DNA of 4,779 nt from the NCBI RefSeq assembly GCF_965641715.1, contig NZ_OZ282459.1. The stretch is one strand, 5' to 3'. The translations under genes were made by a program, and so were the position numbers. Source of the DNA: Escherichia coli. Its GTDB lineage: Bacteria > Pseudomonadota > Gammaproteobacteria > Enterobacterales > Enterobacteriaceae. Numbering within the stretch: the stretch's first letter is position 1; each line of letters opens with the position of its first letter. Under the pieces are notes generated by a model. It worked only from the letters and a program-made list of their open reading frames with translations. It did no database searches and was not told the origin of the DNA. Shown here piece by piece: positions 4,195 through 4,360 of the stretch.

Positions 4195-4360
4195 CAGACC
4201 GTATGCATCTGGCTGCATGACCATGCAGCCGGGTAAAATTTATCTGTCACGGACGGGGCGGTGTATCGGGTGGTTTGTTGCCGGTTTTACCTGACTGCCG
4301 CCCCGTTTGTGACGAACCTGTCCGGAGCGGTGCGGGCAACGGATGTTATGGTAAATAGGT
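4195..4360. other. cer-like Xer multimer-resolution site: core XerC arm GGTGCGGGCAA (4329-4339), 6-bp central region CGGATG (4340-4345), XerD arm TTATGGTAAAT (4346-4356), plus upstream accessory region
   Basis: Core compares with ColE1 cer (GGTGCGTACAA-TTAAGGGA-TTATGGTAAAT): XerD arm identical, XerC arm 2 mismatches, central region 6 bp as in psi/dif-type sites. A perfect 9-bp inverted repeat ggctgcatg-ac-catgcagcc (4211-4230) lies about 100 bp upstream, where cer carries its accessory-protein sites. Confidence 0.65.

Follow-up and report, generated by a model that had tools for sequence, protein, structure and literature searches.

An ARG box, the site of host ArgR, is a standard part of cer-type multimer-resolution sites and has been described before. 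Accessory sequences bind ArgR or ArcA at a defined position, with PepA recruited around that point (Fournes et al. 2025, PMC11724359), and approximately 180 bp of accessory DNA has been reported (PMC2699498). The single 18-bp Arg-box of cer has a published distance of 98 bp to the XerC arm (PMC2409434). According to contact studies, box positions G4, A6, T7, A12, and T13 are the most conserved and are critical for ArgR (PMC6640053), and a C at position 10 is very unusual in ArgR sites (PMC2409434). A P1 sequence with 16/18 consensus matches does not bind ArgR (PMC2409434); therefore, resemblance alone is no proof of ArgR binding.

Among the related sites, the box of pJHCMW1 mwr has been called "less than ideal," its defect weakens resolution, and mwr resolution depends on osmolarity and supercoiling (PMC2699498). 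The ColA site was characterized previously, and at the cloned pIGRW12 site, where pepA, xerC, and ftsK were the only host genes assayed, recombination is XerC and PepA dependent and FtsK independent (Fournes et al. 2025, PMC11724359). The supplement of the same study marks a potential ArgR site, at the position of the palindrome studied here, in several plasmids, namely TGCATAGGTATTCAT in ColE1, TGCATGGTTATGCAG in ColA, TGCATAGCTATGCAG in NTP16, and TGCATAGCCATGCAG in pEC278, and likewise in pIGRW12 and others. The RNA Rcd is a single stem-loop of approximately 70 nt with a conserved 15-nt sequence, and the spacer of its promoter, Pcer, measures 15 bp (PMC5935869); transcription of rcd follows the direction of RNAII (PMC2831885).

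Here, we analyzed a palindrome in a 4,779-nucleotide stretch of Escherichia coli DNA, referred to as the window. Judged from its sequence, the palindrome is very probably the ARG box that belongs to the accessory DNA of a cer-type, ColA-like multimer-resolution site.

The window is a small mobilizable plasmid

The window proved to be a complete small ColE1-type mobilizable plasmid with 100% identity to CP042623.1, an E. coli plasmid of 4,776 bp. It is 3 bases longer than this circle (1-3 / 4777-4779), and its ends therefore probably overlap. RNAI was found on the minus strand (Table 1), so RNAII is on the plus strand; the plus strand also carries the genes for MobC, the relaxase, MbeB, and MbeD, and the minus strand those for a ParA-like ATPase and a DUF2158 protein. 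On the minus strand, a gene that comes after the ParA-like one may span the plasmid junction. A hairpin at 4595-4619, AAAAGCCACCT-CAC-AGGTGGCTTTT, resembles a terminator of that gene, and its weak Rfam match to isrD (E 0.032) is at chance level.

A plus-strand ORF of 39 aa (MRLFNVIETVLNCLYMALEIWDWLEKHFPVFKAFIRILA, 4072-4191), preceded by a GGAGGG ribosome-binding site, ends shortly before the palindrome, and its protein is conserved in four other plasmids, to about 68% DNA identity. Upstream of it lies a small hairpin, GTGATG-AAAA-CATCAC, at 4033-4052; the pIGRW12-like locus L125 keeps the pairing with a different sequence. Furthermore, a 12-bp perfect inverted repeat, TGAAATCAGACC (4189-4200) and GGTCTGATTTCA (4719-4730), 518 bp apart, flanks the cer-like site and the DUF2158 gene; by a rough estimate, about 0.02 such pairs would be expected by chance per 880 bp. 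Pfam held no family for the 39-aa ORF or for a minus-strand ORF at 4009-4224, and NCBIfam, searched for the 39-aa ORF only, gave no match. The minus-strand ORF had been taken for spurious in the preliminary description, and it was indeed found to be so, as stop codons interrupt its frame in four relatives. On the same ground, a coding explanation of the palindrome was rejected.

The palindrome lies in cer-like accessory DNA next to a Xer core

The Xer core at 4329-4356 consists of an 11-bp XerC arm, a 6-bp center, and an 11-bp XerD arm. An nhmmer profile of the cer family matched 4177-4359 with an E value of 6.9e-48, and BLAST detected homologues of 4203-4356 in 2,227 plasmid records, for the most part small mobilizable plasmids from Escherichia, Klebsiella, Salmonella, Enterobacter, and Shigella, with matches typically starting at 4203-4210 and ending at 4356. 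In distant relatives, the homology starts at or just before the palindrome and stops at the final base of the XerD arm. A scan of genome contigs with the cer 15-mer GGGTGGTTTGTTGCC returned mostly chance matches in unrelated phyla, together with six true cer-like sites.

Two of the sites collected are natural hybrids. L128:113-312 is one in which a ColE1-type ARG box and left part are joined to a right part and core of the window type; L134:113-311 is a hybrid of ColE1-type accessory DNA and a CGGATG 6-bp core, with an unusual box-to-XerD-arm distance of 115 bp. These two hybrids suggest recombination between different cer-type sites. The cer-like site L114:3776-3973 has the usual right half and core and nothing ARG-box-like at the expected columns.

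Table 1. Positions of the features in the 4,779-nucleotide window
Feature	Position	Strand	Evidence or remark
RNAI	1222-1324	-	Rfam, 95.6 bits
cer-like accessory sequences	4177-4328	+	Region bound by PepA and ArgR in ColE1; left limit approximate
Upstream ATGCA, ARG-half-site-like pentamer	4203-4207	.	6 bp before the TGCAT of the box
Perfect palindrome GGCTGCATG-AC-CATGCAGCC	4211-4230	.	9-bp arms, 2-bp spacer, 100% complementary
ARG box homologue, 18 bp, GCTGCATGACCATGCAGC	4212-4229	.	Alignment to ColE1 Arg-box GTTGCATAGGTATTCATA
Candidate Pcer-type promoter	4213-4239	+	-35 CTGCAT 4213-4218, 15-bp spacer, -10 TAAAAT 4234-4239
Rcd-like hairpin, GGGTGGTTTGTTGCC in loop	arms 4246-4261 / 4298-4313	+	Inverted repeat and covariation, 27 sites
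XerC-binding arm GGTGCGGGCAA	4329-4339	+	27-site alignment; identical to pIGRW12 core (Fournes et al. 2025)
Central (crossover) region CGGATG, 6 bp	4340-4345	+	Same in ColA and pIGRW12
XerD-binding arm TTATGGTAAAT	4346-4356	+	27-site alignment

The palindrome occupies the columns of the ColE1 Arg-box

The full sequence of the palindrome is GGCTGCATGACCATGCAGCC. The preliminary description had reported a perfect 9-bp inverted repeat with a 2-bp spacer about 100 bp upstream of the Xer core, had likened its placement to that of the ArgR site in cer, and had proposed an accessory-protein site for synapse architecture. The repeat was confirmed, its arms being fully complementary, and its distance to the XerC arm is 98 bp. 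With the 18-bp box as the reference, 99 bp separate it from the XerC arm, next to the 98 bp published for cer (PMC2409434), so that the likened placement held as well; the proposed accessory role, of the ArgR type, is supported by positional homology to the ColE1 Arg-box. Dinucleotide shuffling predicts 0.13 perfect inverted repeats per window with arms of 9 bp or more and a spacer of 6 bp or less; the window has three independent ones. Besides the palindrome, these are two hairpins, each with a T-run after it, at 1227-1250 (the 3' end of RNAI) and at 4596-4619. For the ARG-box core pattern TGMAT-N4-ATKCA, 0.027 occurrences per window would be expected; the single one found is at the palindrome, and TG.AT....AT.CA is likewise unique in the window.

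To place the palindrome among known sites, 30 cer-like sites from seven genera were aligned, including ColA, mwr of pJHCMW1 (sequence taken from NC_003486), and pPCP1 of Yersinia pestis; for pIGRW12 (EF088686), we used locus L125, which is very similar, and the supplement of Fournes et al. 2025 instead. A 27-site alignment, covering Escherichia, Klebsiella, Salmonella, Enterobacter, Shigella, Yersinia, and Erwinia, was used for counting. In the pairwise alignment with ColE1 (locus L001), GGCTGCATGACCATGCAGCC aligned onto GGTTGCATAGGTATTCATAC, and the pairwise, 30-sequence, and 27-sequence alignments all put the window box and the ColE1 cer Arg-box in the same columns. In ColE1-like plasmids, the distance from the 18-mer GTTGCATAGGTATTCATA to the XerC arm is 98 bp. 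From the box to the last few bases before the XerC arm there is one gap, of 1 base, in the old ColE1 record only. The box and the palindrome have a common dyad center at 4220|4221, and the half-sites of the box are TGCAT (4214-4218) and ATGCA (4223-4227).

Box positions G4, C5, A6, A12, T13, C15, and A16 (in the window G4215, C4216, A4217, A4223, T4224, C4226, and A4227) are invariant in 27/27 sites, and the window box carries each of these bases. Position 7 (T4218) is T in 26/27 sites and position 3 is T in 24/27, whereas position 14 varies, being G in 20 sites and T in 6, and the four central bases vary as R-R/G-C-Y. The conserved set thus includes G4, A6, T7 (26/27), A12, and T13. From the upstream edge of the site to the conserved A-tract, nine columns are invariant, mostly ARG-box core positions. 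The spacing is similarly stable, with a box-to-XerC-arm gap of 98-99 bp in 26/27 sites: a 99-bp gap is found in all sites that have a 6-bp central region and right-hand accessory DNA of the window type, and in mwr, and a 98-bp gap in sites with a 7-, 8-, or 9-bp central region and in the hybrid L134, which combines ColE1-type accessory DNA with a 6-bp central region. Because the palindrome is conserved and its spacing fixed, a chance origin was rejected.

The ATGCA pentamer upstream of the box may be an extra ArgR contact. Its columns read ATTCA or ATGCA in 21/27 relatives, and C4206 is invariant.

The window box is a poor match to the E. coli ARG-box consensus

To score the box, we relied solely on consensus strings and critical positions from the literature. 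Its match to the E. coli consensus TNTGAATWWWWATTCANW was 9/16, that of ColE1 cer was 12/16, and a score of at least 9/16 was also reached by 392 further 18-mers of the window; the consensus alone therefore cannot identify the box. The match is poor because the box center is G/C rich, and the call of an ArgR box therefore rests on homology. Given this score, the reserve voiced in the preliminary description, that the ARG-box consensus is less GC rich, was reasonable; the G+C content of the palindrome is 65%, versus 51% for the window.

Nevertheless, T3, G4, A6, T7, A12, T13, C15, and A16 are all kept in the window box, and the mismatches are of two types. The first is the family-wide change of A5 to C and T14 to G that gives TGCAT/ATGCA. 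The A5-to-C change is already present in the functional ColE1 box, both changes are normal in the Streptomyces ARG consensus AWTGCATRWWYATGCAWT, against which the window box scored 13/18, and TGCAT/ATGCA half-sites are known for ArgR-family proteins, the left half of ColE1 cer being TGCAT. The second is the center GACC, with three non-A/T bases. We found no report in the literature consulted of ArgR dependence for a site with exactly this box; that ArgR would bind this G/C-rich variant, and how strongly, we infer from the sequence.

The poor match to the E. coli consensus and the 6-bp central region, as in psi of pSC101, would also suit a different accessory protein or regulator, either ArcA as in psi or one acting at an operator of the neighboring small ORF. 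Against this, the accessory DNA is homologous to cer over its full length, and ColA, mwr, and pIGRW12, which also have 6-bp central regions, are classed as ArgR type (Fournes et al. 2025, PMC11724359). The box also sits after the small ORF, not before it. For ArcA, we scanned the whole window with a box consensus that we take to be GTTAATTAAATGTTA, and nothing similar was found with up to three mismatches. We therefore regard a different protein as extremely improbable, and "another operator," named as an alternative in the preliminary description, found no support.

A candidate Pcer promoter overlaps the box and leads into an Rcd-like hairpin

Downstream of the box, the hairpin at 4246-4313 fits the published description of Rcd. 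Across the 27 cer-like sites, both sides changed in 12/16 of its pairs and 86.5% of cells were paired, and the RNA of 4240-4328 (89 nt) folded at -43.7 kcal/mol (z -4.26). Rfam identified RNAI only in the window, with no match at the palindrome or the Rcd-like hairpin. A scan with 15-bp spacers found TTGCAT-15-TAAAAT in ColE1-type sites and CTGCAT-15-TAAAAT in the window; the latter is the only plus-strand candidate of this spacing just upstream of the hairpin, it is predicted to start transcription near 4246, where the hairpin begins, and its -35 hexamer overlaps the left half of the ARG box. A sigma-70 scan of 3950-4779 with 16-18-bp spacers gave no site at the palindrome. A second role of the box is thus probable, with its left half-site and right part serving as the -35 element and spacer of a Pcer-type promoter, which would drive the adjacent Rcd-like hairpin RNA.

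Promoter and ArgR-box roles are mutually compatible. Could the palindrome then be primarily the -35 and spacer of Pcer, with its dyad symmetry incidental? The 15-bp spacing, shared with ColE1-type sites and as published for Pcer, and the A-rich -10 region, invariant at 4236 and 4238 in the 27 sites, speak for such a promoter. The -35 hexamer, however, leaves unexplained both the dyad symmetry and the invariance of AT-CA in the right half-site, which lies 5-9 bp downstream, in the spacer. Moreover, the placement of Pcer at 4213-4239 is deduced rather than taken from primary mapping, and ColE1 has a second candidate of this spacing, TGAACG-15-TACAAT, which overlaps its XerC arm. We consider this purely promoter-based explanation very improbable and keep to the ARG box as the main identity of the palindrome.

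Predicted hairpin formation by the palindrome and its relatives

Instead of or besides binding protein, the palindrome could act as a nucleic-acid hairpin, that is, as an RNA terminator or stabilizer at the 3' end of the 39-aa ORF or the mob transcript, or as a DNA cruciform. As single-stranded DNA, it folded at -9.6 kcal/mol (z -3.25), the RNA stem-loop at 4192-4250 is moderately stable (-21.5 kcal/mol, z -3.47), and the stem lies 20 bp past the stop codon of the conserved 39-aa ORF. However, the tail after the stem is GGGTAAAATTTAT and has no U-tract, and a scan of 3950-4779 for intrinsic terminators found none at 4211-4245.

The relatives L127, L132, and L137 have palindromes with 14-bp arms whose outer bases differ yet remain complementary, and that of L132 folded as DNA at -17.8 kcal/mol (z -8.84). 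In L132:146-177, and in L127 and L137 (columns 38-69), a 32-bp near-perfect palindrome, TCAC-NNN-GCTGCAT-N4-ATGCAGC-NNN-GTGA, surrounds the ARG box; its NNN pairs, which differ between plasmids, are CTG/CAG, GTG/CAC, and CCT/AGG, and ATTCA and TGAAA on the outside look like additional ARG half-sites at 6 bp from the box. The covariation score of the outer arms was 0.279, versus 0.157 in shuffles, and was reached by 0/500 shuffles, but it is significant only by measures that relatedness can inflate; measures robust to relatedness fell short of significance (pairs, 106/500; pair types, 147/500). The covariation in these relatives is thus suggestive and not robust. Quasi-palindrome template-switch mutation could perfect the arms of such repeats without selection.

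ColE1 cer and its close relatives, on the other hand, have no hairpin at the box (-1.8 kcal/mol, z -0.22); therefore, a hairpin is unnecessary for cer function. In addition, the invariant bases keep their identity and not mere complementarity, which is a mark of protein recognition. Taken together, a hairpin function of the palindrome appears quite improbable, and the ARG box again accounts for it better.

For ColA-like sites, a related possibility is that the ARG box forms the center of an extended symmetric element, ATTCA-6 bp-TGCAT-N4-ATGCA-6 bp-TGAAA, which would be either a half-full-half ArgR operator or a selected hairpin or cruciform. The window has this element in part, with the upstream ATGCA and with TAAAA replacing TGAAA downstream. 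We regard such a longer element as unlikely. If it were a half-full-half operator, four ArgR subunits would be used per site and the stoichiometry of the PepA/ArgR synapse would change; if it were a selected hairpin or cruciform, cer would be insulated from transcription entering from the mob genes.

Proposed function and significance

By the mechanism known from ColE1 cer, an arginine-bound ArgR hexamer would bind the two half-sites, TGCAT and ATGCA, and PepA hexamers would load on the DNA flanking the box. In a plasmid dimer, two directly repeated accessory regions would interwrap approximately three times around PepA and ArgR, and the ARG box would thereby help convert plasmid dimers back to monomers.

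These assignments complete the anatomy of a cer-type module in a small mobilizable E. coli plasmid, comprising the ARG box, a probable Pcer, the Rcd-like hairpin, and the XerC/XerD core, and their importance beyond correct annotation is small. ARG boxes of the cer family read TGCAT-N4-ATGCA with a G/C-tolerant center; the chromosomal ARG-box consensus or a count of matches therefore misses them, and positional homology finds them. If the window box were a weak ArgR site like that of mwr, dimer resolution and plasmid stability could vary with supercoiling or growth conditions, which would be of modest relevance to plasmid ecology.

Comparison with known sites

The window and ColE1 cer (Stirling et al. 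1988; PMC2409434) have in common the alignment columns, the dyad center, and the left half-site TGCAT, and in both the distance from the box to the XerC arm is 98-99 bp, with the same A-tract, an Rcd-type hairpin, and the XerD arm TTATGGTAAAT coming after the box. They differ in the right half (ATGCA in the window, ATTCA in ColE1 cer) and in the center (GACC versus AGGT). The outer bases make the window box a perfect palindrome with 9-bp arms, whereas ColE1 cer has no hairpin potential. The central region is 6 bp in the window and 8 bp in ColE1 cer, and the accessory DNA of the window is 1 bp longer.

The psi site of pSC101, also a plasmid Xer site, likewise has a central region of 6 bp and accessory sequences that depend on PepA, as predicted for the window site, but its second accessory protein is ArcA, not ArgR, and the window has no ArcA-type motif. 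The mwr site of pJHCMW1 (locus L144) is of the cer type: its central region measures 6 bp, its ARG box falls in the same alignment columns, and its gap is 99 bp; the mwr box, CGCATACTCATGCA, lacks T3, whereas the window box keeps it.

The pIGRW12 core, GGTGCGGGCAA-CGGATG-TTATGGTAAAT, is identical to that of the window (Fournes et al. 2025, PMC11724359), and the box of the pIGRW12-like locus L125, GGCTGCATGACTATGCAG, is nearly the same as the window box, while the middle of the pIGRW12 accessory region, the Rcd-type hairpin, is of another sequence. The ColA site differs from the window in its center (GGTT versus GACC), in one outer base that breaks its symmetry, in its XerC arm (GGTGCCGACAA), and in having no 39-aa ORF upstream; its actual box, GGCTGCATGGTTATGCAGTC, has arms as in the window, and CGGATG, the XerD arm, and the spacing are identical.
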